DNA of 59,819 nt from an uncultured Deferribacteres bacterium (GCA_964568545.1 CAZMRE010000002.1:1-59819), one strand, 5' to 3'. Shown: positions 37,484-59,819, counted from the stretch's first letter. Program-made: numbers and translations. The notes: generated from the sequence alone by a model not told the origin.

Positions 37484-37647
37484 TAGGTTAATCGGTTTAG
37501 CGCAATCGTTCTATATTAACCGATTTATATTTTCCCATTTCTTCGGAGCTGAATTTATGCAAAACTATTCTTGTCAATTATTTGCAATTCTATATGGTAA
37601 ATTTTGCGTTCGAGTAAAGCTACTTAAAAAACTAAAATGACCTCCTT

Positions 37648-38712
37648 ATGAAAAAAGCAAGTATTAGTCATGTTGCAGAGCGGGCGGGCGTATCGAAAGC
37701 CACGGTTTCACTTGTTCTGAATAACAAGGATAGTGGAATTCGAATTAGTGAGAAGACCCGTCTCAAAGTTTTGAAAGCCGCAAAGGATTTAAATTACCAT
37801 CCCAATTATGGTGCCCGGTTGCTCTCTACCGGCAAATCCTGCGTGATCGGCGTACTGACGCTCAACGAAAATGCTCTTTTCCTCAGTGATTATGACGGCC
37901 GAATTATGAAGGGGATTTCCGCTGTGACCCATGAATCGGGCTACCATATTATGATTCTGGATGAAGAAATTATCAGCAAAAAATCAGCCTCTTTTGGTGG
38001 AAATCTAATTACTGGAAGTTTTTTGGACGGTTTGCTGGTTTTTTCTCCTGATGCAAAAAATCAGCGTTTGACGGAAATTGTGGATACGCTTTCCGATTCA
38101 AAAATTCCCTTTGTTTATATTTGGAGAAAAGGGGCAAATCGGCCGGCTTCGGTGGTAATGGTGAATAATGTGAAGGCAGCTGAGGTTGGAACGGAGTATC
38201 TGATTTCCCTGGGGCATCGGCGCATTGGCTTTATTTCCTTGGGAAAAAATTCCCTCTCCGGCAGAGAAAGACTAAGCGGATACATGCGCGCTCTCAGTAA
38301 AAATCACATTCCTATTGATGAGGAATTGATCAGGCACGATATTTTTCGAAGTTTTGCCCCTGAAAAAATGTCGGATGAAAGTCGTATTTTTGATTTAATG
38401 GATCATCCCGATCCCCCAACAGCCCTTTTTGTGGTGTTTGATCCGCTTGCCATTAGCGTGATGAGGGTGCTTCAGAACAAAGGAATTTCCGTACCGGGAG
38501 ACGTGTCCGTGCTGGGATTTGGAAATGTGATGATGTCTGCCTATTCCAACCCGGCACTTTCAACAATGAATGAGCCTCTGGAAGAATTTGGTCAGCATGC
38601 GGCGCAAATGCTGGTGGAACAGATTGAAAACGAAGAAAAGCAAGCCCCTGTTAAAGAAGTGGTGCTTGATTCAGAATTGATTGTTCGGGAATCCTGTCGA
38701 GCGATTGCCTAA
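37648..38712 (+). CDS. LacI family transcriptional regulator
   Basis: N-terminal HTH ISHVAERAGVSKATVSLVLNNK plus a periplasmic-binding-protein-like sugar-binding core. Confidence 0.9.
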   Translation: MKKASISHVAERAGVSKATVSLVLNNKDSGIRISEKTRLKVLKAAKDLNYHPNYGARLLSTGKSCVIGVLTLNENALFLSDYDGRIMKGISAVTHESGYHIMILDEEIISKKSASFGGNLITGSFLDGLLVFSPDAKNQRLTEIVDTLSDSKIPFVYIWRKGANRPASVVMVNNVKAAEVGTEYLISLGHRRIGFISLGKNSLSGRERLSGYMRALSKNHIPIDEELIRHDIFRSFAPEKMSDESRIFDLMDHPDPPTALFVVFDPLAISVMRVLQNKGISVPGDVSVLGFGNVMMSAYSNPALSTMNEPLEEFGQHAAQMLVEQIENEEKQAPVKEVVLDSELIVRESCRAIA

Positions 38713-38881
38713 AAAAGTAAAGTAAGTTTTTTGTTAATTATTTTAGGGGATGAGGCTCAAAGCAGATTCGCAAGAGTGGCAAAAAACTCAACAGGAATGG
38801 TTTTTATTCGGAAGCTGCGCAATAGAAGCAGTCTGTGTTTCAGCATTTTTTGAATGAATCTTTTTCTGGAAATAAATTTAA

Positions 38882-41800
38882 ATGATGTTCTTTCGGCACA
38901 AATGGCATCTTGCAAAATTCTTTTTTGCTGTTTTTGGAATAAGCTGGGTGGAAGCGTCTGGTTTTTATCCTGCATTTGCGGGAGTTGAAATTATTCGCTC
39001 CAGCGAGAGGCAGTTTGTTTTTCGATATCATCCGACCATCGTGGAAAAACATGTTATGACAGATCAGGGAAAGACACAAACTATTTTAACATTACCTGGC
39101 GGGCAGAAAGAGGTGCTCCAAAAGGGGCTTTTGCTGCCATGCAAACGTTTTTTGGTTGGCATCCCGCCGAATGGCAATGTGTCCCTTCGGGTGGTAAGAT
39201 CGCAATTTTCTCTTAAGAAAGATGTTTTTGTGGAAAAAGGCAAACTTCCGAAAGATGGGAACGAGCACCTTCAAGAGAAAAATTTCGGGCCGATCCCCGT
39301 TCGGCCAGAAACATACACTTCCCGCGTTTTTTACCCGGCTTCAATTGCGCAAGTAACGGAGGTGGGCCACCTTAGGAATCTAAAAATTGCTCAGATTACC
39401 ATTTACCCGATTCAATACAAATTTTCTACTCACACGGCGAGGATTTGTTCTTCCGTACAAATTTCCATGCAGTTTTCCTCTCACACAGTCAGCGACAGAA
39501 AGAGAAATCCGGTTTCCACACCCTTTAGGCAGATTGCTCGATCCCTTTTGCTCAATGGAAAGCAGGCGCAGAACTGGGGCGAAAAACAGATGGTTTTCTC
39601 TAAAACGAAGAGAACTGACTCGTATCGGTACTGGTTCAAGATTCCAATTTTCAGGGAGGGTATGTACAAAATCGGGTACGCGGATTTAAAAAAAACCGGA
39701 TTGGATTCCAGCCAGATTTCGGCCGATCAGCTTCACATCTTTTACGGCGGCGGCAGGGAACTCCCCTGGGATGTGAACGCCCCGGAGCCGCAGCTTCAGG
39801 AAGTGGCTACCTATTTTAAGGATGCCAATCACGATGGGCATTTTGGGAAGCAGGACGAATTAATTTTTTACGGGCAATCCGTAAACGGCTGGGCGTTTTC
39901 GATAATGGACAAACGTTTTCGTCACTACATTAATCACTACGCACGCTGGAATGTGTACTGGCTGGCCATTGGGGGAGATTCGCGCAAACAGATGGCACGG
40001 ATTACAGAAATACCCGCTCAAGCGGAGACCACTCGCACTGCCTGGCGCTATTTTTACAAAGAAGTGGAAAAACTCAATCCTGAAAAATCAGGCATCCAGT
40101 GGTACTGGGATGAATTCTCCGGGAATGAAACCCGAAAATACCCGCTCCTTCTAAGCGGTGTATCTGCTTCAGATTCTTTTGCCTACCGAATTCACTTGAT
40201 CGGGGCATCCTTCAATCACCACAATCTCAAAATTGCATTGAACGGAGAGCCTCTGGCCGATATCGATTTGCCCTACGAGCGTTCGCTGGTGGTTTCGGGG
40301 GGAAGAGCAAGCGGGCTGAAAAACGGCGGCAATATGCTGTCGATTCAGCAGAAATCGACTCTTGGAAGAAAGGACAAATGTCTTCTGGACTGGGTTGAAT
40401 TGAATTACCGAAGCACGCTTCGCGCGGATTCAACCGGATTGGTCTTTTACGCTCCGCTGAGAAACAAAGATGTGACATTTGCACTTTCCGGATTCCAGGC
40501 GGATAGCGTGACCATTTTCGACGTAAGTGACCCATTCAATGTGCGCTACTCTGAAGCTAAAAAAAATTCCCAAAATCCGGGCGAGTGGCTTTTTAGTGAT
40601 CACCTTTCTTTAATCAATCAAAAAAAATATTTTGCCGTTGCGCTTGATCAAATGATTTCTGTAAAAGAAGTGTATCGCGCGGCGAGTCCGGTAAGCGGTT
40701 TGCGGGATGTTCAGAATCGAGCGGATTATTTGATTATTGCTCACGAAAGCCTATTGGGTGCCGATTTGTCCCGTTTGGCATCGCACCGTGCTGACCCGGC
40801 GTTTTGGCCCGGGGGAAAAGACGCGCCCGTTGTGAAAATTGTTCCCGTAAATCAGATTTACAACGCTTTTTCGTGGGGAATCCCGGATCCCACGGCGATT
40901 CGCAATTTTCTGAAATACACCTTTTCTCACTGGACAAAAGCACCGTCGTACGTTCTCTTGGTTGGAAATGCTTGTTACGACATGAAGCAAAATTCGAGTG
41001 CCAGCCCCCCCACGTTGGTGCCTACACACGAAGACGAACTGCGTGTAACCGACGACTGGTTTGCTTTTTTGAACAATGACCGGATTATGGACATGCTGAT
41101 TGGCCGGTTGTCCGTTCAGAATCAGGAAGACCTCCACAATGTGGTGGAAAAAATAATTGAATACGATACGCAGCTTCCACCAGCCCCGTGGCAGGGACGC
41201 GTTCTTCTGGTGGCAGATGACGCTAATTCCCCGACTTACAAGAGTGAGGATATTGCGTTTGGACGAGATACGGAATCGCTTTCGCGGGATTCTGTTTTTT
41301 CAGATTTGTCCATTGAAAAGGTGTACTTGGATGCCTATTCCCAAGATGCTTCGGGAAGAAAGGAAGAAGCAAAACGAGATTTTCTGGCCCAATTGAACAA
41401 GGGAACCGTCTTTGTGAATTTTCTGGGGCACGCAAATCTGGAAGTGTTGACGCACGAAAACATTTTTTACACGCCTCAAGATTTGCCCCTGGTTCAAAAT
41501 GGGCGTCGCTACCCCCTGTTTTTTGCCGGAACCTGCGCTGTGGGGCAGTTTGACTACGATCGCAAACCCTGCATGGCGGAATATCTGACCAATTTGCCCG
41601 AACGTGGAATGATTGCCGCCATTGCTTCTACCCGTTGGACATGGCACAAACTCAATTACGGTGTGAATAAATCCTTTGTGAAAACGCTATTTGACCCTAA
41701 AAATCGGGGCAGGCTTTCCATTGGGGAAGCACTTCTGGCAGCGAAATTGACGTCACGCTACGCAGATCATCGTGAGTTGATTACACTTTTTGGTGATCCG

Positions 41801-42880
41801 GCTTTGCGTCTGGCGTTGCCAACCCGAAATGTGGGCTTGCGAGTTTTACCGGACACGCTTTCACTGCACAAAAGAACCCAGATAATGGCGTCGGTTTCGA
41901 ACAGCCGCATCAAACCGAAAAATTTTAATGGGGAGATTTTTCTGGAATTGCGGGATTCAGGGCAAATACACCACCCAGCGGGTTACAGCTATTTTTTGCC
42001 TGGAGAGATTATTTTTCAGGACACGCTTTTTTCGGAAGATGGAACGGTGCAGGATGATTTTTTTCCAAAAACGATTACATTGTCCGGCGGAAAACTGGGT
42101 CGGCTTTACAGCTTTGCTTGGAACAGAAAGCTTCGGGCTGCCGGTCGACTGGATTCCATTCCAATAAAAAGGGATGTGATTCACTCCTTTTCGGAGATTG
42201 ATTCCACAGGCCCTGAGATTGAAGTTTCCGTGAATCAAAAAAGGATTGAGGATGGAGCGGAAATAACGGTTTTTCCTCATTTTCGGTGTCGGTTCAAACT
42301 GCGGGATACCGTGAGTGGAATTTTGGTTACTAAACCGGAAAACTTCCCGGTGCAGTTTACTGTCAATGGCGATACCACGCTAACGCGCAACCTCACGTCA
42401 CAGCTCATCTGCACGGATTCCACTCGGAGCAACGCAACTGCTGAGATTGACTGTCGGAATTTGCCCCTCGGGGAACAGACGTTTGAGATTACGGCCTGGG
42501 ATCAAGCCTACAATCCTTCCCATTTTGAATGGAAAGGGATGGTGGTTCCGTCAGAATTAAAATTGACCCATGTACTGACTTACCCTAACCCTGCCAGCGA
42601 AAGAACCTATTTTACATTTGATTTGTCTGGTTCGGCGCAGGTAACGGTTAAAATTTATACGCTCTCAGGCCGTTTGATCCAAATGTTTGAGGCTGAGGCT
42701 CAACCGGGTTTCAACCGGATTCCCGGCGAGGGTTGGAATTGTCGCGATCGGGATGGCGATCCGCTGGCCAATGGCGTGTATCTGTACAAAATTGTTGCTC
42801 GCTCGGAATTTTCGGTGTTTCAGACAGGAGCAAAAAAACAATATGCAAGCGCTCTGGGACGTCTGGCTATTTTTAGGTAA
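38882..42880 (+). CDS. peptidase C25 family protein with C-terminal T9SS sorting domain; PorU-like (candidate T9SS C-terminal signal peptidase)
   Basis: Signal peptide. YRYWFKIPIFREGMYKIGYADLKKTGL...IFYGGGRELP pattern seen in PorU/gingipain-type proteins. Catalytic-type His (VNFLGHANLE) and Cys (FFAGTCAVGQFD). C-terminal LTYPNPASERTYFTF...VTVKIYTLSGRLI...NGVYLYKIVA domain (about 42584-42880). The PorU assignment rests on size, architecture and the nearby PorV/PorQ-like gene. Confidence 0.75.
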   Translation: MMFFRHKWHLAKFFFAVFGISWVEASGFYPAFAGVEIIRSSERQFVFRYHPTIVEKHVMTDQGKTQTILTLPGGQKEVLQKGLLLPCKRFLVGIPPNGNVSLRVVRSQFSLKKDVFVEKGKLPKDGNEHLQEKNFGPIPVRPETYTSRVFYPASIAQVTEVGHLRNLKIAQITIYPIQYKFSTHTARICSSVQISMQFSSHTVSDRKRNPVSTPFRQIARSLLLNGKQAQNWGEKQMVFSKTKRTDSYRYWFKIPIFREGMYKIGYADLKKTGLDSSQISADQLHIFYGGGRELPWDVNAPEPQLQEVATYFKDANHDGHFGKQDELIFYGQSVNGWAFSIMDKRFRHYINHYARWNVYWLAIGGDSRKQMARITEIPAQAETTRTAWRYFYKEVEKLNPEKSGIQWYWDEFSGNETRKYPLLLSGVSASDSFAYRIHLIGASFNHHNLKIALNGEPLADIDLPYERSLVVSGGRASGLKNGGNMLSIQQKSTLGRKDKCLLDWVELNYRSTLRADSTGLVFYAPLRNKDVTFALSGFQADSVTIFDVSDPFNVRYSEAKKNSQNPGEWLFSDHLSLINQKKYFAVALDQMISVKEVYRAASPVSGLRDVQNRADYLIIAHESLLGADLSRLASHRADPAFWPGGKDAPVVKIVPVNQIYNAFSWGIPDPTAIRNFLKYTFSHWTKAPSYVLLVGNACYDMKQNSSASPPTLVPTHEDELRVTDDWFAFLNNDRIMDMLIGRLSVQNQEDLHNVVEKIIEYDTQLPPAPWQGRVLLVADDANSPTYKSEDIAFGRDTESLSRDSVFSDLSIEKVYLDAYSQDASGRKEEAKRDFLAQLNKGTVFVNFLGHANLEVLTHENIFYTPQDLPLVQNGRRYPLFFAGTCAVGQFDYDRKPCMAEYLTNLPERGMIAAIASTRWTWHKLNYGVNKSFVKTLFDPKNRGRLSIGEALLAAKLTSRYADHRELITLFGDPALRLALPTRNVGLRVLPDTLSLHKRTQIMASVSNSRIKPKNFNGEIFLELRDSGQIHHPAGYSYFLPGEIIFQDTLFSEDGTVQDDFFPKTITLSGGKLGRLYSFAWNRKLRAAGRLDSIPIKRDVIHSFSEIDSTGPEIEVSVNQKRIEDGAEITVFPHFRCRFKLRDTVSGILVTKPENFPVQFTVNGDTTLTRNLTSQLICTDSTRSNATAEIDCRNLPLGEQTFEITAWDQAYNPSHFEWKGMVVPSELKLTHVLTYPNPASERTYFTFDLSGSAQVTVKIYTLSGRLIQMFEAEAQPGFNRIPGEGWNCRDRDGDPLANGVYLYKIVARSEFSVFQTGAKKQYASALGRLAIFR

Positions 42881-42948
42881 GGAAATAAATTAATGCGTAC
42901 AAATTCATAAATCAAATCTTTTCATACTTAAACTGAAAGGAAAAGCCG

Positions 42949-45900
42949 ATGAAACGGGTGTTCGCTAAAATTGTATTGGCTCTACTTTTCACAATGGGAA
43001 TGCTTCCCCATCTGGCCATTTCCGGCAGTACAGGAAAAATTGTAGGACATGTTGTCGATGCCAAGACCGGAAGTCCCCTGCCCGGTGTAAATGTGATGCT
43101 TGTGGGTACTCGGATGGGAGCGGCTACAGACGCCAACGGTGATTATTTCATCATTAATATTCCCCCGGGAAATTACTCGGTGAAAGCATCGATGATTGGC
43201 TATCAGATTCTTGAAAAGACCGGCGTGATGGTAGAAATTGACCGGACGGTTCGGGTGAATTTTAAATTGAGCCAGTCCGTAATTTCAGGAAAGCCGGTGG
43301 TGGTTACGGCCAAAAAGGAAATTGTTCCAATGGATGTGTCGGCCAGCCAGATTACCATTCAAGGTGAAAAAACGCAGTTAATGCCTGTTAACACGATTCA
43401 AGATGCCATTCGTTTAACGCCCGGCATTTACATTGACGATCAAACAAATTTCATCACCGTGCGAGGCGGCGGAGGCGATCAGGTACTGGTTTTGGTCGAT
43501 GGGGTTTCAATGACCGATAATCTGTTTAACCGGCCGTTTCTTTCAATGAATCGCTCTGCCATTGAGCAGGTTTCCATTCAGACGGGTGGATTTAACGCTG
43601 AATACGGAAACCTGCGTTCTGGTTTGTTTAACATTGTTACTAAAGAGGGCGGCAATCGCTACAATCTGAGTTTGGATTACAAATATCGATTTCCATCATT
43701 AAAATACGAAGGCCCCAAATTATTTACTCCGGGATATAAAGATAACCTGATGTATGGCAGCGATGTTTCCATGGATTCCAGTAGACTACGGCAAATGTTC
43801 CCAAATCCGGAGGATTATTTCATGGGCTGGGTTGCTTTTTCGGAAAACAAAATGATGGATAGCGATTCGTCCAACGATCTTTCTCCTAATCAGCGCCGGC
43901 AATTATGGCTCTGGCGCCACCGGGGATTTCCGCACGGCAACAAACCAGATCATTACCTGGATGCCACGCTGACCGGTCCAATTCCAGGTCGTTCCATTCC
44001 GATTTGGGGCAGTTTTGCCAGACGCACCACATTTCTACTGTCGCATCGCTTTAACAATGTCAAATATGCAGAACCAGCCGTTCGGGATCATTTCTTTGAT
44101 CGGAACTCAATTGTCAAATTGACGACGCACATTACCCCGTCTATGAAGTTGACCCTTTCCGGGATGTTTGCTAAGGAATGGGGAATGGCCAAAGCCGACC
44201 CCCATTATCCTAATGGTCTATTTATCTACCATACCGGTATGGGAAAACGATACGGCGGATGTGAGAATCCTGTGGGGGATTTGACCACGAACATGTTGGA
44301 TATTAATTTTACGCACACGCTTAGCCCGCGAACATTTTATGTAGTGCGGTTGTCTCGCATGCAAACTCACTATCACATTACTCACGGACCCGACCGGGAT
44401 ACCACCAAGATAAAATATATTCCGGCAGATTGGTACACCGTGCAGGGCGACACCCTCAATGTCCCCGGTTATTGGGATTCCAAAACCGGACACTATGTGC
44501 TTCACGACACCACTTTCTACAAGGGTGACAGGGTGTGGTTCCCCGCATCTTCCTACGATGAAACGCCGCACGGCTGGATTATTGGAGGCCAGACGTTTAA
44601 TGACCAGCCCGGAAAGGTTAATCTGGATAATACCAGTATCGATTTTGATTCCTCCAAGGGTTGGACTACCATCTTTAAATTCGATTTAACCAGTCAGGTG
44701 AACAAATATCATCAGATTAAAACCGGACTTTATATGGATATGAGCCGGCTGGATCGGGCGTATCGTGAATTAACCTTCCAGCGAAAAAAACGATTGAGCT
44801 TTTCCTCTCCCCCAAGAAAAGCTGCTGTTTATGTTCAGGACAGGATTGAAGTAAAAGGAATGATTGCCAATGTTGGCCTTCGAGCCGAATACTTTGACGC
44901 CCACGGCAAGGTCTACGAACCGGGGAATCCCTTTTCGCGTGCTTTTGGTCCGGGGTTCTGGGATCGAATTGACGGCGATAGTCTGAAATACGGTCTTAGT
45001 GAGAAGCACTTTTTTATCAGTCCGCGAATAGGAATTTCACATCCAATGACGGCAAACAGCAAGATTTACTTCAACTACGGGCATTTTTATTCGCCTCCAT
45101 TGACATTTCACCTGTACGGTTTTTATAATCGAAGCGATTATGAGTCACAGGCAGAGTTTATCGGAAATCCCAATTTAAAGCCTCCGCGAACGATTGCCTA
45201 TGAACTTGGATTTGATATGGATTTGCATCGAATGTTTCTGATTCACACGGATGTTTTTTACAAGGACGTGACTAATGAAGAAGGAGCTATTTACTACACG
45301 AGTATTGATAAAATAACCAATTACAAAACATGGACCAACAAAAAATATGAGGATATCATCGGATGGGAACTGCGTATCAACAAACGGGTCGGACGGTTCT
45401 TTACCGGTTGGATCCAAACTCAATTTATGGGACAACGGGCCGGTGAGGTTGGCTACCAGCACTTATATGAGCCAGATGATCCCCTCAATGTACCGACCTA
45501 TTCGCGCTTTTCCGTTCCTATTAGCCGACTATGGCGTTGGAAGCCCAGTTTTCAGGGCTATGTAGATGTGCATTCCCCCGAAAATTGGGGGCCTCGTGTT
45601 TTCAAACATTGCATTTTTGCAGGATTTCATGTGAATACCATTATCCATTGGGCAGCCGGTGATAAGTTTACGTGGAACCCGGACAATAAGCCCTTTATCC
45701 GTGACAATCTCCAATGGAAAAATTATTTCCGATCGGATATTTACATGAGCAAGAATTTTACCGTGGGTCGGGTCAACATCAGTCCTTACCTCGATATGCG
45801 AAATCTTTTTGCCCGCAAGATGCTAAATGTGGGAGTTCTGCGAGGCTTAGCTGTTAATCCCGGATCGGAAATTTACAGATACTATGCTTCTCTTAAAAAA

Positions 45901-46029
45901 GGAGATCGCGTAGGCGATTATAAACAATCGTACATTAAATACCCTCACTATAAACCAGGAGAGCCGCTTTACATTCACCAGGGAGGCCCAAAAGAGGTTT
46001 ATATGGGTATTCATATTGAGTTAAAATGA
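42949..46029 (+). CDS. TonB-dependent-receptor-like outer membrane barrel with N-terminal carboxypeptidase-regulatory-like domain
   Basis: Signal peptide. GKIVGHVVDAKTGSPLPGVNVMLVGTRMGAATDANGDYFIINIPPGNYSV (CarboxypepD_reg). Plug motifs VRGGGGDQVLVLVDGVSM and GGFNAEYGNLRSGLFNIVTKEG, followed by about 750 aa of aromatic-rich barrel. It ends in ...HIELK with no terminal aromatic residue. Confidence 0.8.
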   Translation: MKRVFAKIVLALLFTMGMLPHLAISGSTGKIVGHVVDAKTGSPLPGVNVMLVGTRMGAATDANGDYFIINIPPGNYSVKASMIGYQILEKTGVMVEIDRTVRVNFKLSQSVISGKPVVVTAKKEIVPMDVSASQITIQGEKTQLMPVNTIQDAIRLTPGIYIDDQTNFITVRGGGGDQVLVLVDGVSMTDNLFNRPFLSMNRSAIEQVSIQTGGFNAEYGNLRSGLFNIVTKEGGNRYNLSLDYKYRFPSLKYEGPKLFTPGYKDNLMYGSDVSMDSSRLRQMFPNPEDYFMGWVAFSENKMMDSDSSNDLSPNQRRQLWLWRHRGFPHGNKPDHYLDATLTGPIPGRSIPIWGSFARRTTFLLSHRFNNVKYAEPAVRDHFFDRNSIVKLTTHITPSMKLTLSGMFAKEWGMAKADPHYPNGLFIYHTGMGKRYGGCENPVGDLTTNMLDINFTHTLSPRTFYVVRLSRMQTHYHITHGPDRDTTKIKYIPADWYTVQGDTLNVPGYWDSKTGHYVLHDTTFYKGDRVWFPASSYDETPHGWIIGGQTFNDQPGKVNLDNTSIDFDSSKGWTTIFKFDLTSQVNKYHQIKTGLYMDMSRLDRAYRELTFQRKKRLSFSSPPRKAAVYVQDRIEVKGMIANVGLRAEYFDAHGKVYEPGNPFSRAFGPGFWDRIDGDSLKYGLSEKHFFISPRIGISHPMTANSKIYFNYGHFYSPPLTFHLYGFYNRSDYESQAEFIGNPNLKPPRTIAYELGFDMDLHRMFLIHTDVFYKDVTNEEGAIYYTSIDKITNYKTWTNKKYEDIIGWELRINKRVGRFFTGWIQTQFMGQRAGEVGYQHLYEPDDPLNVPTYSRFSVPISRLWRWKPSFQGYVDVHSPENWGPRVFKHCIFAGFHVNTIIHWAAGDKFTWNPDNKPFIRDNLQWKNYFRSDIYMSKNFTVGRVNISPYLDMRNLFARKMLNVGVLRGLAVNPGSEIYRYYASLKKGDRVGDYKQSYIKYPHYKPGEPLYIHQGGPKEVYMGIHIELK

Positions 46030-46133
46030 ACCTTCCATGGCAAGATTGTGCTGCGCAATTCAAAGGAAAGTTATCGTATGTAAAAATACTCGTTCTTTCA
46101 ATAATCAGTGAATCCTTTAGTCGGAGAGTTCTT

Positions 46134-47129: not shown

Positions 47130-47205
47130 ACCAGGAATCTAAAATGCCCAAAAATATTTACTCAAAACACGATTAATATAGAGACTTTTAAATGGAGAAT
47201 TGGTG

Positions 47206-49353: not shown

Positions 49354-49411
49354 ATAGCCTTTTGGAGGAGATTTAGAAACACCTTTTGTGTGATTTTATG
49401 GAGATATAAGA

Positions 49412-51559: not shown

Positions 51560-51675
51560 CACAAAGGGAAAAAACAATCAAACCAAATGAAAGGAGGTGA
51601 TTATTCAAGGATGTTCATTGGGGGAAATCGTAAAAAAATGAAAAAACAATGAACGAACCTTTAAGGAGGGTTACG

Positions 51676-52878
51676 ATGAAACGATTCGTAGTTTTATTAG
51701 CCACCATTGCAATGGCCGTGTTTATGGTATCCAATAGTTTTGCCGGAAACAAGGCTCTAAAAAAGGCCAGTGGTGTAACAGAAATCAAATTGTACACGAA
51801 TGAGAACCCACCTCGGTTTTGGGGTTATGATTCGGTAGGTACAAATCATGCAGCCAATTACCTGGGACAAAAAAAATCATATCCCCATGCCAGCAGTTTG
51901 GTTGTTCGATTTGGAATGAACAATGACATCGTGAATGGCGATACGTGTAATATCTATGTAAGCCATGATGCTGCTATTGGTCCTTACGCCTATTGGCTCC
52001 ATTTTGTTGGTATGCCCAACCCGAGAAATTGGGTGGATATCTATCGTTCCGATACCGAAGGCTATGATCAATATCTGGATGCATCCCACACCCAGCGCGT
52101 GACTTTCTGGATTAAAGCCGACCCCAAATTGGCAGATACATACCCGCTGTTCTTCGTCTGGAGAAGCCAGGAAGTAAATGGCCACGATGCATTCAGTGCC
52201 ATCGCCTGCATCAGGGGAGAAACCATCGTGCGGATTGATCCTTATGGTGATTGGAATGTCGTCCGTTTTCACAAATTCAGTGGAGATTGGCAGTTTGTAT
52301 CTATTCCGTGGACGTTCTTCACCATTCCAACGGCTGATTCTGTACAGGCCATTATCCCGTATAGCTGGGCGGGCGTCCAAACCGATGGAAAATCCTATGG
52401 TCCCGATTTCGATCCGTCAACAATTCGTGTGTACCAATTGGACACCAGAATCGGCGGTGAACCTGACAAAGGAAATTTCCCCTGGCCGGATAGCGGAACA
52501 CCCGAAGGTACTGGAGATTATGGAATTGATGAAATGATTCTGACCCTGAACCCAGGAACAGGCGTCAGTGGGGTGAATGGCGAAAAGACCACCGTTCCGT
52601 TGACCTACGAACTGAAAGATGCCTATCCCAATCCATTCAATCCCAGCACGACCATTGAGTACGGGCTTCCTGTAAGCAATACCGTGAAAATCGTGGTGTA
52701 CAATTCAATGGGACAGAAAGTGAAAACACTGGTTAACAGCTACCAGACACTGGGCACTTACAAAGTGACATGGGACGGCACCAATGATTTTGGCGAAACT
52801 GTTCCAAGCGGCGTTTACTTTTGCAAGATGACGTCCAGCCATTTCAGCGCTGTGAAAAAACTAATGCTGATGAAGTAA
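51676..52878 (+). CDS. secreted beta-sandwich (carbohydrate-binding-module-like) protein with T9SS-type C-terminal domain
   Basis: AAGGAGGG RBS and signal peptide MKRFVVLLATIAMAVFMVSNSFA. WQFVSIPWTFFT...FDPSTIRVYQLD...GDYGIDEMILT resembles CBM11/CIA30-type modules (inference). CTD YPNPFNPSTTIEYGLPVSNTVKIVVYNSMGQKV...SGVYFCKM (about 52605-52878). Confidence 0.8.
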   Translation: MKRFVVLLATIAMAVFMVSNSFAGNKALKKASGVTEIKLYTNENPPRFWGYDSVGTNHAANYLGQKKSYPHASSLVVRFGMNNDIVNGDTCNIYVSHDAAIGPYAYWLHFVGMPNPRNWVDIYRSDTEGYDQYLDASHTQRVTFWIKADPKLADTYPLFFVWRSQEVNGHDAFSAIACIRGETIVRIDPYGDWNVVRFHKFSGDWQFVSIPWTFFTIPTADSVQAIIPYSWAGVQTDGKSYGPDFDPSTIRVYQLDTRIGGEPDKGNFPWPDSGTPEGTGDYGIDEMILTLNPGTGVSGVNGEKTTVPLTYELKDAYPNPFNPSTTIEYGLPVSNTVKIVVYNSMGQKVKTLVNSYQTLGTYKVTWDGTNDFGETVPSGVYFCKMTSSHFSAVKKLMLMK

Positions 52879-52913
52879 AACCAGTGTTGTTTAATTAGTC
52901 GCTAAATTCAGCG

Positions 52914-52963
52914 GGCGCTTCCTTAAGTTTTTTAACCTCTTTGAGGAAGCGCCTGATTTTTTA
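52914..52963 (+). terminator. strong rho-independent terminator closing the 38882-52878 gene string
   Basis: GGCGCTTCC (52914-52922) pairs with GGAAGCGCC (52945-52953), followed by TGATTTTTTA. Confidence 0.7.
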
Positions 52964-53103
52964 TCTGTAAGAAGAAAAAAATAATTTTTTGCTTGCAATT
53001 TTGGAGAAAAAGCATAATTTATGATAACGTTTGCGTAGGCCTATTTAATGGTCGAAATTTTTACAATTAAATTATTTTTATTTAATAAAATGAGGTAGCG
53101 ATT

Positions 53104-56100
53104 ATGTCTGTTCGATTTAGCAGTAATCGTCCGCCGAAAGCATGTTTACACGACGGTCTTGTACAAAAAGCAAAAATGATCTTTGCCCTTTTTATCTGGA
53201 TTTTTTTGTTGGGTGAGGCACAGGGAAGAACTTTTCCTGCTTCCGCTTCTGCTTTGCCTCCCGTTCCGCACGATTACGCGGGCGGCGCCGATTACCAATC
53301 CTACCTTACTTATTCCAAAACTTTTGCTGACACTTTCCTCCGGGCGGCCGTGGACCATTGGGGTCCCAAAAAGACCCCCCTGTTTGTGCAGATGCTGGCG
53401 CTAAAGACCCATGACATCCCAAAAAAATCCGACGACCCCCGCTGGCAAATGGATTACGCCGGGGCCGACTACGTGTATGCCTCCCAGGGAAGTGACCTTT
53501 CCCGAGAAACGTACATGTTGCCGGCACTGATTGAGTTAACCGAAATAACCGGGAATCCCAAATACAAACAGGCGGCGCTGGCCTATTTGCGATTTTACTT
53601 CAAACACTGTCCCAGTCCTACTACGGGACTCTGGCCCTGGGGCGAACACATGAGCTACAATGTGGTCGCCGACAGGATTCACCACTGGCGGGAAGAGCCG
53701 GAAATGTCGCCGGCGCCGTGGGAGCTCTTTTGGCAAATTGACAGCAGCGCCGTGCGAAAGGAGATTGAGGGGTTTTACAAGTACCACACGTACGACAAAA
53801 AAAACACCTTCTTGTTTGATCGCCACGGCAACTATTACACCGGCCTGTTCGACGACATGCGGGTGCGGGGAGCTTACATCAAACACTCCGGCATTTACCT
53901 CTATGGATTTACTTTTCTTTGGACGAAAACCCACAATCCAAAATATCTAAAATGGATGAAAAAAGAGGCTGATCTTTTCTGGAACCGGCGGAATCCCCGA
54001 ACAGGGCTGATTCCCGACGAGGCTAAGGAAACCGAAGGCGTAGTCGCTCAAACGGCCACTTTGACCTATTACTTGCTTCTCTCTTATCAACTGGCACCGG
54101 ATCAGACGTATCTGTTGAAACGGGCGGCTTTCTACATGCGGCATTTTCTCCGGGCAGCCTACAATCCGGAAAACGGTTCCTACTTTGGCGGCGTCCATTT
54201 GAGAACCGGCACGCCCGCGACAGCCTCCCATTTCAGCGTGTGGGGCACCAATAGTCCCGCCGCTTACCTGGGCAAAACAGTGGCACTTTTGTACAAAAAC
54301 ACGGGCGACCCCTTTTTCCTTTGGCACGCTCGGCAAATTGCCCGGATGATTGAGAATACGCCCTTTTCTGAAAATACCTGCGCCGGGGCAATGGGCCAGG
54401 TGATTCACTTCTTTCTAGATCTGTACGACCTGACCGGTGATGGGGCGTACCTTCGCTTTTCGCGGAAAGTGGCTTCAACAGCCATCGACTCCCTTTACAA
54501 TAACGGGCTGTTTAAATACACCTTTCGCAGCTACATCTACAATGCCGGCGGACCCAATGATGGGGACCACACGGGCCACCTTTTCAAAATGCTCCTAAGG
54601 CTTTACAAAATGGAAAAGGGCGTGCCGCTGCACTGGCAGGCACCCGCCATTTGGCACGAATGGAAACGCCCTGTACCCGTGAGGGTGATGGGAAACACTC
54701 CGCTTAAAGGATTGCGGTTGGTGTACATCTTTGGGCACGATCCCGCCGAGCATGTGCTAAAGCCCCAACGGCAGTCGGGGAAAACGGCCTTTTTTGACAT
54801 TCCACTTGAGCCGAAAAAAGAGGGGCTGCTTCGATTTCATTTTAGGTTGAAAAAAGACCGCCAGCACGAGACAGATTCGGCCAATTGGGCCGGTATGGCT
54901 CAGGTGCAAGTGGTGCGCCAGCATGCTGTGCCGGTTATTTCCGATGTCCACTTCCCGCGGGTGGTGCCGGACGTGACACGCATTCCGCTTTCGTTCCGAG
55001 TGGTTTGCCCGGCTGGAATCAAGCAAGCCAGTCTCTTTTACCGGCGCATGCGGGAGCCGGTGCGGGAACAAATGGTCACAAAGCCACTGATAAGTGGCCA
55101 GCAGGTGATGATGTCCATCCCGCCGAAAAACAGCTGTTTCACCGGTTGGACGGATTTCTGGCTCCAGGCCTGGGGGGATCCGGCATTTCCAAGACGCAGT
55201 CAGACGAAGCACTTCCGGGTAATCGCTTCGCAGAAAGCCGAACAAGAGCTTTTGGCTGATCCGAAAAAATGGCAATCACTGGATTTTTCCGCGCTTGGTG
55301 TGCAAATGGAAGTAAAATCGACCCGGAGGACCCCTATTTCCGTGGAAAAAATTCCGGGAGCTCCGGTAACGTTCACAAAAGGGTTGCCGGGAAAAGCCGC
55401 GGCATTTTACCGATTCCGGACAGGGAGGAAGGTCTGGCTGCCCCAGGCGTCTCGTGCAAAGATTCTGGTTGCATCCCGATGGCTGGAACGCTTTGTGGGC
55501 CCAACGCTTCAATTTTACCACGCACAAAAGCGGCATTGGGTACCGGTGTCGTCTCGCTTGTCGGAAGATCAAAAGCAGCTTACGGCCAATCTGCCGGATT
55601 CGGGCCTCTATGCAGTTTCGGGTCTGCCGCGCCAGGTTTGGCGGTGGCCCGCCAGCGATGCCCTTCTCGTGTCGCCTGCTGTGGGGGATTTGGATGGAGA
55701 CGGAAAGTTAGAGGTGATCTTTGCTTCCCGGGATTTTGGACATTTTATGACAGCCCTCCACGCGGATGGAACTGAGTATTGGACCATCGAAAAAGATGGC
55801 GGGTTTTCGTTTCCAGTTCTGGCCGATCTGGACGGCGACGGGCGCCCTGAAGTGATTGTGGGCGACATGGACGGCTACCTTTATGTGTTTAATGGTGACG
55901 GCAGCCTCAAGTGGCGCTACTTTGCCAATAGCGGGGTCAAAACCCCGGCTGTTGGAGATCTGAACGGCGACGGTAAACCGGAGATCGTTTTCGGACTGAA
56001 AAACGGCGACGTGGTGGCTATTTCGAACACAGGGAAAAAGATCTGGCAAACATCGACGGTTCCGCCAGCCAAGCGAAACGCAATCACACTGGCCAACCAG

Positions 56101-56877
56101 GCCTTCGGCGGACATTCCCCGGTGGAAAAAACCATTCCGGCTCTGGCAGACCTGGACGGAGATGGGAAACTGGAAACTCTGATTGCTGGACGAGACAGCC
56201 TGCTCTGGGCTCTGGATTTTCAGGGAAAACCCCTTTGGAAGGTGGCGCTGATCGGGCGACTGGACTACGGCCCCGCCGTGGGCGATCTGGACGGCGATGG
56301 GCAGAAAGAGGTCGTGCTGAACAGCCGTCACGGGGGAGAAAAAGCAAAGGTGTACGCCATCAGCGCAAAGGGAAAAATCCTTTGGTCAGTACCCTGCGAT
56401 GCCTACGGGGACTGGTCGGTTTCGTTGGCGGACGTGACAGGCGACGGCAAGTTGGAAGTGGTGGCCAACGACACGACGCCCGCGCTGAATGTGATTAATT
56501 ACTGCGGGAAGGTGGTGCGCCGGATTCCGCTGCAAAGCTGGAACACGATGACCCCGGCAATCACAGATTTGACGGGAGACGGGAAACCCGATTTTGTGGT
56601 GGCCGGAAACGAGGAGCGCAAGGTGCACGTTCTGGACAATTCCGGGAAGGTGTTGTGGAGCTTTCAGCCTCCCAGCTTTGGCTACGGCGGGGCGAAAGTA
56701 AAGGGCGGCGGCAATGTGGCCATCGCGGATGTAGACGGCGACGGCAAATTGGACATCCTGTTTGGCGATGATGAGAGCTGGTTTTACGACCTTCGCACCC
56801 AGGCCGTGTGCAAACCCTTTGAAATTCGCGTGAACCAGTACCACAACAACGTGGCCCATACGGGGGTGTTTAAATAA
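53104..56877 (+). CDS. 1257-aa secreted protein: helical (alpha/alpha-toroid-like) N-terminal region + 8 FG-GAP/VCBS-type propeller repeats
   Basis: GAGG RBS and a hydrophobic signal-like segment MIFALFIWIFLLGEAQG (an alternative start is ATG 53176). Eight repeats of the form (V/L)(G/A)D(L/V)(D/N/T)GDGKxE(V/I) between about 55680 and 56780, alternating with xGKxLW strands. No T9SS-type C-terminal domain. Confidence 0.8.
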   Translation: MSVRFSSNRPPKACLHDGLVQKAKMIFALFIWIFLLGEAQGRTFPASASALPPVPHDYAGGADYQSYLTYSKTFADTFLRAAVDHWGPKKTPLFVQMLALKTHDIPKKSDDPRWQMDYAGADYVYASQGSDLSRETYMLPALIELTEITGNPKYKQAALAYLRFYFKHCPSPTTGLWPWGEHMSYNVVADRIHHWREEPEMSPAPWELFWQIDSSAVRKEIEGFYKYHTYDKKNTFLFDRHGNYYTGLFDDMRVRGAYIKHSGIYLYGFTFLWTKTHNPKYLKWMKKEADLFWNRRNPRTGLIPDEAKETEGVVAQTATLTYYLLLSYQLAPDQTYLLKRAAFYMRHFLRAAYNPENGSYFGGVHLRTGTPATASHFSVWGTNSPAAYLGKTVALLYKNTGDPFFLWHARQIARMIENTPFSENTCAGAMGQVIHFFLDLYDLTGDGAYLRFSRKVASTAIDSLYNNGLFKYTFRSYIYNAGGPNDGDHTGHLFKMLLRLYKMEKGVPLHWQAPAIWHEWKRPVPVRVMGNTPLKGLRLVYIFGHDPAEHVLKPQRQSGKTAFFDIPLEPKKEGLLRFHFRLKKDRQHETDSANWAGMAQVQVVRQHAVPVISDVHFPRVVPDVTRIPLSFRVVCPAGIKQASLFYRRMREPVREQMVTKPLISGQQVMMSIPPKNSCFTGWTDFWLQAWGDPAFPRRSQTKHFRVIASQKAEQELLADPKKWQSLDFSALGVQMEVKSTRRTPISVEKIPGAPVTFTKGLPGKAAAFYRFRTGRKVWLPQASRAKILVASRWLERFVGPTLQFYHAQKRHWVPVSSRLSEDQKQLTANLPDSGLYAVSGLPRQVWRWPASDALLVSPAVGDLDGDGKLEVIFASRDFGHFMTALHADGTEYWTIEKDGGFSFPVLADLDGDGRPEVIVGDMDGYLYVFNGDGSLKWRYFANSGVKTPAVGDLNGDGKPEIVFGLKNGDVVAISNTGKKIWQTSTVPPAKRNAITLANQAFGGHSPVEKTIPALADLDGDGKLETLIAGRDSLLWALDFQGKPLWKVALIGRLDYGPAVGDLDGDGQKEVVLNSRHGGEKAKVYAISAKGKILWSVPCDAYGDWSVSLADVTGDGKLEVVANDTTPALNVINYCGKVVRRIPLQSWNTMTPAITDLTGDGKPDFVVAGNEERKVHVLDNSGKVLWSFQPPSFGYGGAKVKGGGNVAIADVDGDGKLDILFGDDESWFYDLRTQAVCKPFEIRVNQYHNNVAHTGVFK

Positions 56878-56881
56878 AAAG

Positions 56882-57020
56882 AAGTTGCTCGGTTATTCGG
56901 TTTCTCGGCTGCTCGGTTTGAAAAATAGTTCGCGGGTTCACTCGTTCGCTGATTTAAAAAAACGGTCACTGAGCGTAGTCGAAGTGACCAATGAGATTCT
57001 TCGCTTCGCTCAGAATGACA
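56882..57020 (+). repeat. composite intergenic repeat, copy 1
   Basis: 8-nt periodic tract GCTCGGTT ATTCGGTT TCTCGGCT GCTCGGTT, then A7, then hairpin GGTCACT-N12-AGTGACC (56964-56989), then GAGATTCTTCGCTTCGCTCAGAATGAC. Confidence 0.7.
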
Positions 57021-57134
57021 AAAATATGACATGCGAAGAAGACCGGAAGGATCATCATCGACTTGAGCCGTGGGCAGCGTCGCCCCGGGAAGATGAATTC
57101 GTTAGTAATCTGTTACCAAATTAGAAAAGGCACA

Positions 57135-59603
57135 ATGTTGGAAAAATTGAACCACATTTTTGAAGTCGCCCTTTGCCTTTTGGCCTTGGTGGGAAGTCTG
57201 GGTGTGGTAAAAACTGCTGTGGGTGAGCAGTGGGCTCTCATTCTCGGCAAAAGTGAAATAAACGACGCGGCCGTCAAAGTAGCCGTGTCCGATTTACTTG
57301 AAAGCGCCCGTCAATACGGTATTTCAATTCGGGTGGAAGCAGACGGGGTTCGACCAAGCGGAAATGCTATTTTCGTCGGGGTTCCGGCCCGCAACCAGCA
57401 AGCGCGGAAATACTTTCCCAAGAATAAATTATCCCCGAAAACACTTACCTCAAAGAATGGATTCCAAATTCAAACCGTTCTCGAAAAATCGGACACGTTG
57501 ATTCTGATTTCTGGCGGTTCAATTATGGGAGACGTCAACGGCCTGTACTATTTACGGGATCGGCTGCGGGTTACAAGAAGATTCCCTGTTCTCAATGAAA
57601 CGCGGCAGCCCCTTTTCACAATTGCCTGTAACGTTCAGGCCAAGGGCCTGAAGTCTTTGAAAAAAAATCAAACAGCCCTCTTTCGCAATGCCCTGGCGTA
57701 TGGAATAAATTGGGTTGTTGTCGATAACACGCTCAATCTGGTTCCTTGGAACGCGGAACCGGAAAAAACGCAGAATGAGAAAAATCGCCAGGAAGTAAAA
57801 AAACTAATTCAGCGGGCTCACGCCTTGCACCTCAAATGCTTTACTTACGGCGATGAATTCACCTATCTTCCTTCTTTTCTGCAGGAACTGCACGCCACCT
57901 GTTCGGTGGATGATCCCAACTTCTGGAAAGCCGTTCAGGAAAAATACCGGCGCCTGCTCCGGGCCCTGCCGGAATTGGACGGCGTGGGAATCCGTACGGG
58001 AGAATTGACCCAGGTCTGGGGAAATTACCGCGCGTTCGACGTCATGCACGAAGGGCCATCCTGTCCCTGGACGCTGACCAGGCGCTACCGGACATTTGTG
58101 AAAAAAATTTATGACGTGGTCGTGGGAGAATTCCACAAGCTTTATTACCAACGCACGTGGGGAACTAATCTGAAGGAGCAGCATTCGGATCCGGAGGTTT
58201 TCAAGCGAACCTTTACCAGTGCTATTCCCGTTAAAAATCTGTACCTGGTTCCCAAAATCACAACCGGGGACCAAGGCTGGTTTCAGCCGTTTAATCCCAC
58301 ATTTAATCTGACGCCTCACCATACGCTCGCTGAATTTGAATCGATGGATGTGGGTCAGGATATGTTTCCGACCTTCCCTGCAGCCTATTTTCAAGCCGCT
58401 CTTCAAACGATTGTTGAAGGAACCTCTACAAATGTGCAGGGAATGGCATTTGATATTCCGCCGAAAGATGACTGGGGAAACTGGAACGCTGTTGCTTACA
58501 TCCTGCACCGGCTCAACTGGAACTTGAACGTTGATGTGCACACGCTGGCCCGGGATTTTGCAGCCATTCATTTCGGACCCAAAGCAGCCGACAAAATGGC
58601 AGAAATTTTCTTGCTTACACCCGTGGTCTACAAATACGGTTTGTATCTGGAGCCCATCGCTGCCCGCATGCACCGGCAATTGCCCCAATTGCGTGGAACG
58701 ATTTTCCCTGTGGCCGGTTTTCCTGTTATCGATCACGGGAAGGCACACCTGGAATTCTGGCACCAGATTTACCTGCAGACAAAACCCTGGATGCATGAAA
58801 CCCTCAATTTGTTGGATTATGGTCTTCAAACCGCTCAGAAAATGATAAACCTTTTCCAAGAGGCTAAACCGCTCATTACAGACAAAACACTGGCCGAGGA
58901 TGCTGAAAGAAAAGTTCTCCGAACCGAGGCACTTGTCCAAACGAACAATTTATACGTAAAAACCGCATTTTCGTATTTTGATTTTCTTGAAGATTCCAGC
59001 CCGGAAAACTATTCCCATCTCAAAAAACTGGCTTCTGAACTTTCACTTGCAAAAGTACACTTCGCAGGGTTGAAGGGCAAACCTTACCACTTTTTTGGAA
59101 TTGACCAACTCTTGAAAAACGTAAAAGAAGTTCTGGAAAACAAAGAACAAGCGTTGAATTTTTTGAAGCATGCACCGACCACGGATGGAGTCATGGCGTT
59201 GATTGAGAGACAGGAAGAAGCCCATCGGCACGTTTTGAATCAGTACAGGGGCCAATTGATTAAAATCCTACATTGGAGAGGGCGAGTGGACGGGAAAGAC
59301 ATTTTAGTGGTGAAAGCAAAAACACTCTCGGTTCAGCACGTGCAGTGGGAGCCCATTCAAGACATGCGCACCCGGTTTTACTCGGAATTGCCAGAATCAG
59401 AGATGAGCGTTGTTATTAAGGATATTCATTCGCGGACTCTCCATCCCTTTGTGCTGGAACAGCCCACGGCAGGGAATCACTACACGACCAAGATTTATCT
59501 GGTTGATGCCCCGGGTGGTGGAGACCTGTGGGAACTGGAATTGTACGCGATTAAAAAGTCTCCGAAGCTTTTGGGCCTGTGGCCGACGTGGCAGGGGGAA
59601 TAG
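57135..59603 (+). CDS. putative glycoside hydrolase, distantly GH67 (alpha-glucuronidase)-like
   Basis: ATG 57135 (MLEKLNHIFEVALCLLALVGSLG signal/anchor). N-domain ...ILISGGSIMGDVNGLYYLRDRL. LAYGINWVVVDN, ELDGVGIRTGE and NLYLVPKITTGDQGWFQPFNPTF are reminiscent of GH67 TIM-barrel blocks. Assigned by memory only. Confidence 0.4.
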   Translation: MLEKLNHIFEVALCLLALVGSLGVVKTAVGEQWALILGKSEINDAAVKVAVSDLLESARQYGISIRVEADGVRPSGNAIFVGVPARNQQARKYFPKNKLSPKTLTSKNGFQIQTVLEKSDTLILISGGSIMGDVNGLYYLRDRLRVTRRFPVLNETRQPLFTIACNVQAKGLKSLKKNQTALFRNALAYGINWVVVDNTLNLVPWNAEPEKTQNEKNRQEVKKLIQRAHALHLKCFTYGDEFTYLPSFLQELHATCSVDDPNFWKAVQEKYRRLLRALPELDGVGIRTGELTQVWGNYRAFDVMHEGPSCPWTLTRRYRTFVKKIYDVVVGEFHKLYYQRTWGTNLKEQHSDPEVFKRTFTSAIPVKNLYLVPKITTGDQGWFQPFNPTFNLTPHHTLAEFESMDVGQDMFPTFPAAYFQAALQTIVEGTSTNVQGMAFDIPPKDDWGNWNAVAYILHRLNWNLNVDVHTLARDFAAIHFGPKAADKMAEIFLLTPVVYKYGLYLEPIAARMHRQLPQLRGTIFPVAGFPVIDHGKAHLEFWHQIYLQTKPWMHETLNLLDYGLQTAQKMINLFQEAKPLITDKTLAEDAERKVLRTEALVQTNNLYVKTAFSYFDFLEDSSPENYSHLKKLASELSLAKVHFAGLKGKPYHFFGIDQLLKNVKEVLENKEQALNFLKHAPTTDGVMALIERQEEAHRHVLNQYRGQLIKILHWRGRVDGKDILVVKAKTLSVQHVQWEPIQDMRTRFYSELPESEMSVVIKDIHSRTLHPFVLEQPTAGNHYTTKIYLVDAPGGGDLWELELYAIKKSPKLLGLWPTWQGE

Positions 59604-59605
59604 GA

Positions 59606-59819
59606 AAGTTGTTCCGTTTGTCGGTCACTCGGTTACTCAGTCAAAGATTATTTAGTTTGCTGGTTCGTTTGTTTAAAAAAAGCGGTCGTCGAGTGTTGGC
59701 CGGTGGCGAACGTATCGAGACGACCGAGAAGCCGGCCGCAGAATACAGGAAAAGATGCACTATTCGGTCATTGAGCCCGTCGAAATGACCGGCCTACTGT
59801 TTTCAAAGAGATTCTTCGT
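59606..59819 (+). repeat. composite intergenic repeat, copy 2 (runs off the window end)
   Basis: AGTTGTTCCGTTTGTCGGTCACTCGGTTACTCAGTC, then A7, then two hairpin modules: CGGTCGTC...GACGACCG (59683-59726) and CGGTCATT-N11-AATGACCG (59765-59791). It ends in GAGATTCTTCGT at the window edge. Colinear with copy 1. Confidence 0.7.

Follow-up and report, generated by a model that had tools for sequence, protein, structure and literature searches.

A SusD-free, LacI-headed outer-membrane gene module with a predicted T9SS-delivered surface partner in an uncultured Deferribacteres bacterium

In the SusC/SusD polysaccharide utilization loci (PULs; utilisomes) of Bacteroidota, the accepted model for glycan uptake in that phylum, a TonB-dependent transporter with an N-terminal CarboxypepD_reg-type domain adjoins an obligatory partner at the surface, along with other surface proteins, enzymes that act on glycans and a regulator of the sugar type, and the transporter-partner unit occurs in tandem duplicates. 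How capture is coupled to import in the relatives of Bacteroidota within the Fibrobacterota-Chlorobiota-Bacteroidota (FCB) group is much less clear. Here we analyse a gene cluster at positions 37648-59603 of a 59,819-nt sequence from an uncultured Deferribacteres bacterium (CAZMRE010000002.1, assembly GCA_964568545.1; this whole stretch is referred to as the window). The cluster combines a LacI-family regulator, a PorU-class type IX secretion system (T9SS) sortase, a TonB-dependent receptor (TBDR), a small barrel of the PorV/PorQ family and proteins that end in a T9SS type-A C-terminal sorting domain (CTD). It shares the above features with SusC/SusD PULs, but it holds no SusD, its TBDR does not reach the SusC/RagA model, its obligatory partner is a type-A CTD protein of an unmodelled family rather than a lipoprotein, and a third gene, for the PorV/PorQ-family barrel, is obligatory as well. 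The initial annotation of this sequence, which described the cluster as PUL-like without SusD and T9SS-linked, was broadly right. We read it as a sugar-regulated, SusD-free outer-membrane uptake module with a T9SS-delivered surface partner, an interpretation that we hold with moderate confidence.

The cluster also resembles several T9SS-related systems in part. Similar to the PorU-PorV/PorZ-PorQ attachment complex of Porphyromonas gingivalis, it encodes a C25 sortase with intact His/Cys residues and a CTD of its own together with a PorV/PorQ-family barrel, and its CTD proteins may stay bound to the barrel through an uncleaved CTD. In contrast to that complex, its barrel qualifies as an equivalog of neither PorV nor PorQ, its surface proteins of about 715 aa lack the double propeller, its genes stand together with those of a TBDR and a LacI regulator, and the sortase is missing from most of the loci that carry the gene trio described below. 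Where PorP/SprF-family barrels are encoded by their cognate type-B CTD cargo, as in SprF-SprB, a small T9SS-family barrel likewise lies beside the particular cargo that it is thought to hold at the surface, whereas the cargo of the present module carries a type-A CTD, its barrel belongs to the PorV/PorQ family and a TBDR is included. The module also recalls the putative second pairs modelled in NCBIfam as PorU2 (NF052324) and PorV2 (NF052325), each an extra PorU-like and PorV-like pair beside a canonical T9SS, but the window proteins fail both models (198.9 vs 450 bits for the sortase and 59.3 vs 325 bits for the barrel) and represent a different paralog lineage. Finally, in BamG-BamH of the Bacteroidota β-barrel assembly machinery (BAM), a FadL/PorV-like 14-strand barrel sits on a larger barrel as a platform for a surface protein (PMC12578637). 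There, the larger barrel is BamA rather than a TBDR and the partners are lipoproteins.

The core trio and its distribution

The genes at the centre of the cluster, all on the plus strand, encode a 1026-aa TBDR (42949-46029), a 331-aa outer-membrane barrel of the PorV/PorQ family and 14-strand type (46134-47129), and two tandem surface proteins of about 715 aa, P717 (47200-49353, likely ATG start at 47206) and P715 (49412-51559). Their distribution was surveyed by comparing an alignment of the ~715-aa family with JGI and ENA metagenome contigs, followed by tblastn with all window proteins, which yielded 76 non-redundant loci (these and other contigs cited here carry L numbers), 35 of them with at least 4.5 kb of upstream and 1.3 kb of downstream sequence. 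A TBDR homolog and a PorV/PorQ-family barrel directly adjoined the P717-family gene on the same strand in 34 of these 35 loci. Based on identity to P717, loci were divided into type 1 (at least 44%; 12 loci, window-like) and type 2 (about 30%; 64 loci). Type-2 loci show the order TBDR, P717-like gene, barrel, and their sources include deep-ocean, TARA, sediment and activated-sludge contigs. No PorU was detected within 10 kb of the trio in any of the 64 type-2 loci, and the same holds for homologs of the ~400-aa CTD protein that follows P715 in the window. To judge from this comparison of gene neighbourhoods, the core unit is the trio of TBDR, ~715-aa CTD protein and PorV/PorQ-family barrel, while a PorU paralog, a ~400-aa CTD protein and, in most cases, LacI are additions that occur only in the branch nearest the window, whose labelled members are Calditrichota and KSB1.

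Because the trio occurs without a nearby PorU in all of the distant loci, a role of the barrel as sortase shuttle is less likely than one as cognate partner, either to the ~715-aa protein or to the TBDR. The initial annotation had proposed a module of a sortase/shuttle pair, an uptake barrel and dedicated cargo. A conserved set with a TBDR is indeed present, but the sortase is not part of its core and the small barrel probably serves another partner; the ~715-aa proteins, which had been regarded as dedicated cargo, are a core component and not interchangeable cargo.

In the branch nearest the window, the closest relatives of the sortase (36-62% identity) were all found in the same gene company. 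The full gene set recurred in L001, L002, L003, L004, L009, L086, L089, L092, L094, L098 and L099, with different flanks and a permuted order. The window order is kept in L001 and L002; L003, L004, L086, L092 and L094 follow the order TBDR, barrel, P717, sortase and ~400-aa CTD protein, and L009, L089, L098 and L099 begin with the sortase and LacI and continue, after other genes, with TBDR, barrel, P717 copies and the ~400-aa CTD protein. Downstream genes vary and are CAZyme-like (GH95, GH42, GH29, PL22-like, DUF4838). Since the flanks differ in every locus, these genes travel together and did not become neighbours by chance, and the conservation in relatives that the initial annotation had set as a test holds down to 36-38% PorU identity. 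Named carriers are metagenome-assembled genomes (MAGs) of Calditrichota, KSB1, Ignavibacteriales and Melioribacteraceae.

The neighbourhood of the type-2 trios is sugar-related. Tandem duplicated trios were observed in L142, L146, L153 and L169, and LacI homologs were detected by tblastn beside several trios (L134, L138, L152, L154, L155 and L168). Among 110 open reading frames (ORFs) neighbouring type-2 trios, GH2, GH63/MGH1/trehalase, ROK kinases, SSF symporters, TIG domains and 16 CTD proteins were recurrent; SusD, which is absent from the window cluster, was not among the 25 most frequent families of this set. About half of the type-2 loci encode an additional lipoprotein of about 410 aa with an invariant Cys, an IPT/TIG domain and an SGL/NHL-like β-propeller. 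This protein, which resembles a surface glycan-binding protein (SGBP), is encoded directly before the TBDR or after the barrel (e.g., L118:12873-14069) and was found in L118, L129, L130, L131, L136, L138, L142, L145, L150, L152, L158, L160, L162 and L166. A homology between this lipoprotein and the ~400-aa CTD family was considered and rejected (hhalign probability of 2.8%).

P717 and P715, the paralogs noted in the initial annotation, are 87.6% identical, and homologous genes in relatives occur in 1 to at least 4-5 tandem copies. P717 consists of a signal peptide, a mostly-β N-domain of about 450 aa with a helical hairpin, an Fn3 domain (residues 483-579, also recognised by sequence) and a CTD of type A. 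With a cut-off of 23 bits, the model for this domain, TIGR04183, was passed by exactly four proteins of the cluster, namely the sortase (29.3 bits), P717 (25.2 bits), P715 (24.0 bits) and the ~400-aa protein (37.7 bits), which confirms the four sorting domains predicted initially; within the P717 family, 28 of 42 members passed it (E ≤ 0.001). Apart from the CTD, neither paralog matched a Pfam family, and the N-domain has no Pfam or NCBIfam model. A search of 1.84 billion proteins with this domain returned 260 cluster representatives. An AlphaFold2 (AF2) model of P717 built from 42 sequences (pLDDT 86.5, pTM 0.84) displayed a large β-sandwich N-domain followed by Fn3 and CTD. Compared to the PDB with Foldseek, it gave weak matches (TM 0.2-0.27) to the non-catalytic β-sandwich N-domains of GH94, GH116, GH31 and GH65 enzymes. 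Down to 28-30% identity, the polar residues R276, D291, H324, D326, D331, D335, Q338, K444 and D453 of the N-domain are invariant. PorZ was examined as a possible identity of the ~715-aa proteins and rejected, as the PorZ model NF052228 aligned to the CTD only (28.3 vs 260 bits), the Foldseek match to PorZ was likewise confined to the CTD, and the AF2 model contains no propeller.

The TBDR matched CarboxypepD_reg (PF13620, 71.4 bits), Plug (PF07715, 48.6 vs 23.9 bits) and OMP_b-brl_3 (PF14905, 50.2 vs 27 bits), all above cut-off, in line with the receptor-like barrel described initially. A TonB-box-like PVVVTA motif lies C-terminal to the N-terminal domain. With its Plug, its barrel and this motif, the protein has the sequence features looked for in a TonB-dependent receptor (Plug, 22-strand-type barrel and TonB box). 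Compared to SusC/RagA (TIGR04056), it reached only 60.6 vs 368 bits over the N-terminal 180 residues, and no substrate-specific TBDR equivalog was matched in NCBIfam. The small barrel had been annotated as PorV/PorQ-like, of which the family stands (NF033709, 161 bits with a cut-off of 90) but neither equivalog does (PorV NF033710, 51.7 vs 250 bits; PorQ NF033711, 79.6 vs 220 bits). NF033709 was matched by each of the 17 module barrels that were sampled across the two locus types, and their profile matched PorV in the PDB (6h3i) at 5e-19; TIGR03519 (PorP/SprF) and BamG each gave a weak match in 1 of the 17. The longest ORF of the barrel gene opens at an ATG at 46026 and overlaps the TBDR stop, while the start supported by homologs, with a signal peptide, is at 46134; the gap of 104 nt between the two genes follows from this start.

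Proposed mechanism and competing readings

In the mechanism that we propose, LacI would repress the promoter before its own gene, and the presence of an inducer would probably lead to transcription from lacI through to a terminator at 52913. The TBDR would import an oligosaccharide-type substrate, for which pectin fragments, fucosylated glycans and galactans would be candidates to judge from the PL2-like, GH29, GH95 and GH42 neighbours. The ~715-aa proteins would cross the outer membrane via the T9SS of the cell through their type-A CTD and would then remain on the cell surface close to the TBDR, held there most probably by the PorV/PorQ-family barrel of the same locus through binding of the CTD. 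At the surface they would capture or pre-process the substrate, which is the job of SusD and SGBPs in Bacteroidota. In the branch nearest the window, the trio would have gained the PorU-paralog sortase and the ~400-aa CTD protein, and the PorU paralog, once induced, would presumably serve to process the cargo of the module or to attach it. Barrel retention has precedents, as PorQ holds PorZ, PorV holds PorU and PorP/SprF holds type-B cargo, and cognate PorV-like barrels that retain uncleaved CTDs have already been proposed in the T9SS literature (PMC10202324). For a FadL-type platform barrel docked on a larger one, BamG is the precedent (PMC12578637).

Several points weigh against this reading. 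The sequences show the family memberships, the conserved gene order, the operator block, the terminator and the sugar-related surroundings, but the complex of TBDR, barrel and P717, the retention of the CTD by the barrel, the roles of the ~715-aa proteins and of the sortase, co-transcription and the substrate class are all points that we infer. As the TBDR has no close solved relative, sugar import is proposed from its context only. The invariant polar residues of P717 would be easier to reconcile with an enzyme, or with a constant protein-protein interface, than with a variable binder of glycans, and one locus with sufficient flank (L143) has no detected barrel. The operator candidates stand before lacI only and the 169-nt spacer between lacI and porU folds moderately, which makes read-through from lacI into porU not certain. 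No T9SS core genes were found in the remaining 37 kb of the window, whose content is housekeeping. We also infer that a second, canonical PorU exists in the same genome as the module; it was sought in module carriers, but not demonstrated.

An alternative explanation, which we consider less likely, is that the same parts play other roles: the ~715-aa proteins would be surface enzymes, for example of a new polysaccharide-cleaving family, the small barrel would be a dedicated shuttle that hastens their export and not a permanent anchor, and the TBDR would import the products. A polar cluster that stays invariant across very divergent N-domains would suit such enzymes, as would the tandem amplification to 3-5 copies, which is typical of secreted enzymes, and PorV does act as the shuttle in the canonical system (PMC10202324). 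The fold of the N-domain is also like the β-sandwich domains of glycoside phosphorylases and hydrolases, but the Foldseek matches concern non-catalytic N-terminal domains at low TM, and the ~715-aa proteins matched no CAZy-linked Pfam family. Moreover, a general PorV should do for shuttling, whereas the occurrence of one barrel per trio, duplicated trios included, suggests a stoichiometric partner.

It is improbable that the TBDR-like barrel is not a nutrient importer at all and that the trio is an outer-membrane assembly or secretion sub-complex, with a large plugged barrel and the FadL-like barrel as a platform for a surface protein, in the manner of BamA-BamG-BamH. There, a FadL-type barrel on a larger one does serve for attachment (PMC12578637), and the TBDR matches no substrate-specific equivalog. 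The TBDR retains, however, a Plug domain and a TonB-box-like motif, its neighbours are sugar catabolism and uptake genes with LacI regulators, and the tandem duplication of the trio resembles the transporter pairs of PULs. A third possibility, that the locus is simply the only housekeeping porU-porV pair of the genome (the attachment complex), which the TBDR, LacI and CTD proteins adjoin without functional coupling, is likewise improbable: the sortase passes the PorU equivalog-domain model, porU-porV adjacency is usual in canonical loci and the search for a second PorU would agree with it, but the barrel misses the PorV equivalog by far (51 vs 250 bits), the entire gene set travels together into different genomic contexts, the module PorU forms a clade apart from the canonical PorU of the same phylum, the trio is kept in 64 loci with no PorU nearby, and the LacI association and operator are conserved.

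Within the reading of the cluster as an uptake module, we propose more tentatively, and at somewhat less than even chances, that the trio is an undescribed three-component uptake machine in which the CTD stays uncleaved and the small barrel fastens it to the transporter. Such a machine would be a T9SS-dependent, non-lipoprotein counterpart of SusCD that spans non-Bacteroidota FCB lineages and marine, sediment and sludge metagenomes and that acquired its own LacI-controlled PorU paralog near the window. All components belong to known superfamilies; the obligatory three-gene unit, its wide environmental spread and the LacI-controlled PorU paralog are apparently new. No description of the trio or of module-type PorU paralogs was found in the literature, of which our coverage was partial, so an earlier description is possible, and the genome papers on Caldithrix and Melioribacter do not mention them. 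Melioribacter carries a SusCDE operon, and we do not claim that SusD is absent from these phyla. If the proposal holds, the trio would offer a second, testable architecture that links capture at the surface to TonB-dependent import, a definite function for the numerous PorV/PorQ-family paralogs that have no assignment and for the model-less ~715-aa family, and a case in which a sugar repressor controls a T9SS sortase paralog. The trio would also serve as a simple genomic marker for PUL-like loci that are invisible to SusD-based PUL predictors.

Sortase paralog, LacI regulator and transcription

The sortase gene (38882-42880, plus strand) encodes a PorU-class C25 peptidase of 1332 aa with its own type-A CTD. 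We confirmed its initial assignment with the PorU model NF033707 (575.7 bits with a cut-off of 420, residues 250-1309) and with Peptidase_C25 (278.6 bits). The C25 dyad is present, with His850 invariant and Cys885 at least 90% conserved among 18 sequences. The protein is a putative sortase that would cleave the CTD of T9SS cargo and attach the cargo. Module PorU proteins share 35-60% identity among each other and at most 34% with any canonical PorU; they did not group with the canonical, PorV-adjacent PorU as orthologs would, but formed a separate clade. Canonical Calditrichota PorU, by comparison, was 34-36% identical to Ignavibacteria PorU and 23-29% to module PorU, and was found in housekeeping surroundings (L171) or next to the gene of a PorV-type barrel (L036). 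A relative of 32% identity in L084, an unlabelled MAG, is followed by a barrel that matches the Pfam PorV family. The separate clade, together with the grouping of canonical Calditrichota PorU with that of Ignavibacteria, indicates that the module PorU is a paralogous lineage. Tandem pairs of PorU-class genes were also observed on some Bacteroidota contigs (L008, L060 and L061), and PorU duplication is therefore not unique to the module.

The canonical Calditrichota PorU matches came from assemblies other than those of the module, namely GCA_054028755.1 and a JGI 3300005096 contig. P0056, from a module array (L172), and P0155, a canonical PorU (L091), originate from the same Guaymas metagenome but probably from different MAGs, their NCBI accessions being about 70,000 apart. 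By contrast, just 1,378 separates the NCBI protein accessions NOY57659 (L009) and NOY59037 (L172), so that both contigs are probably part of a single Calditrichota MAG, and they may represent a single locus that was split by the assembly within the tandem ~715-aa paralogs.

The LacI-family transcription regulator (354 aa; 37648-38712, plus strand) has the LacI helix-turn-helix domain at its N-terminus (PF00356, 62.7 bits) and a periplasmic-binding-protein-like effector domain (PF13377, 118.3 bits), as is characteristic of the family, and reached the cut-off of no NCBIfam equivalog. The module is headed or flanked by a lacI gene in L001, L002, L003, L009, L089, L093, L094, L098 and L099, and in most close relatives LacI stands at the head of the TBDR operon. 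A promoter and two candidate LacI operators were located at 37455-37527 on the plus strand, with TTGACA at 37455-37460, a 17-nt spacer and TATATT at 37478-37483, 170 nt 5' of lacI. They are followed by two 12-bp CG-centred pseudo-palindromes, TTAATCGGTTTA (37488-37499) and TTAACCGATTTA (37516-37527), which are the only two perfect matches to the pattern TTAAYCGRTTTA in the window. This promoter-operator block is kept in L001 and L002, and hence in three loci with the window, despite a LacI identity of only about 60%, and LacI is predicted to bind the two pseudo-palindromes. No candidate operator was found before any other gene, porU, the TBDR gene, the FG-GAP gene and the 846-aa gene included.

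Nine plus-strand genes were called between 37648 and 59603, LacI and eight others, where the initial annotation counted ten genes after LacI. All ORFs were confirmed at their original positions and strand, and the intergenic gaps of 68, 104, 76, 58 and 116 nt were reproduced with ATG starts at 47206 and 51676. The string from lacI to the ~400-aa CTD gene is closed by an intrinsic terminator on the plus strand (52913-52965), as had been predicted. Its hairpin (52913-52955) has a 15-bp stem (dG −25.6 kcal/mol, z = −5.7, a stability reached by none of 200 shuffles) and is followed at its 3' side by a U-run, UGAUUUUUUAU; a simple terminator scan overlooked it because of its long loop. The lacI-porU spacer of 169 nt contains no clean terminator (z = −2.35 for its moderate folding) and in L001 measures just 24 nt. 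The simplest reading would be a single LacI-repressed transcript that starts ahead of lacI and ends at the terminator.

Divergence is far greater at the module's left end than in the rest. Between the window and L002, the sortase is 52% and LacI 62% identical, compared to 92-95% at the protein and 82% at the nucleotide level for the TBDR, barrel, paralogs and ~400-aa CTD protein; across L002 and L001, sortase identity to the window was 52-59% and LacI identity 60-62%. This pattern would reflect either a much weaker constraint or a replacement.

The ~400-aa CTD protein and neighbouring genes

The gene of the ~400-aa protein (51676-52878, plus strand) lies in an ORF that opens at 51649, with its likely start at 51676, and its product carries a type-A CTD (PF18962, 31.7 bits, in addition to TIGR04183). 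It had been described as CBM-like, for carbohydrate-binding module, but only the CTD was recognised; the N-domain had no Pfam or PDB match, even with a 14-sequence profile, and a single-sequence AF2 model reached a pLDDT of 32. Homologs (1-3 copies) were present in every type-1 locus that reached far enough downstream. In KSB1-type modules, the gene is followed by a PMT_2-like gene that weakly matches GT-C type glycosyltransferases (L088:14071-16089 and L089:17961-19907). In L089 and in L100, where the same arrangement is likely, a homolog of the 846-aa protein described below comes next after the PMT_2-like gene; the window has no PMT_2-like gene.

The two genes beyond the terminator had been counted as members of the cluster, but they stand downstream of it without an operator and recur only loosely. 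The first (53104-56877, plus strand, likely start at 53176) encodes the 1257-aa FG-GAP protein, whose initial assignment was correct (FG-GAP_3, 121.7 bits). It has a signal peptide, an α/α-toroid region and an FG-GAP β-propeller, and no CTD. Its N-terminal part matched Pectate_lyase_2 (PF06917) with 52.3 bits (cut-off 26.6) over profile positions 32-149 of 491 only, and PDB 6ojk at 8e-8 over about 240 residues (67-302). A homolog of 32% identity lies upstream and on the opposite strand in L094. We regard this gene as a separate transcription unit and a loosely linked neighbour of the module. The second gene (57063-59603, plus strand, likely start at 57135) encodes an 846-aa protein with no CTD that had been called GH67-like. 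This was not borne out, as DUF4838 was matched below threshold only (17.5 vs 26.6 bits, over 60 residues) and there was no PDB or NCBIfam match. With 40% homologs downstream of the module in L089 and L100, it is a recurrent but loosely linked neighbour.

An Rfam scan of the window returned no family. Outside the cluster, two ORFs (400 and 384 aa) that match no Pfam family are followed by a bacterial eRF1-like 'baeRF family 10' protein (26680-27828; the group spans 23817-27828). This group adjoins a GalT-like/DUF4931 gene and a DUF123 gene and is unrelated to the module. Finally, an extragenic element of about 150 nt is repeated after the FG-GAP gene (56878-57015) and after the 846-aa gene (59604-59819), the only two copies in the window. 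It contains CTCGGTT-like repeats, a run of TTTAAAAAAA, a hairpin (CGGTCACTGAGC...GTGACC) and a common CAAWGAGATTCTTCG tail, and may represent a REP-like or terminator element.

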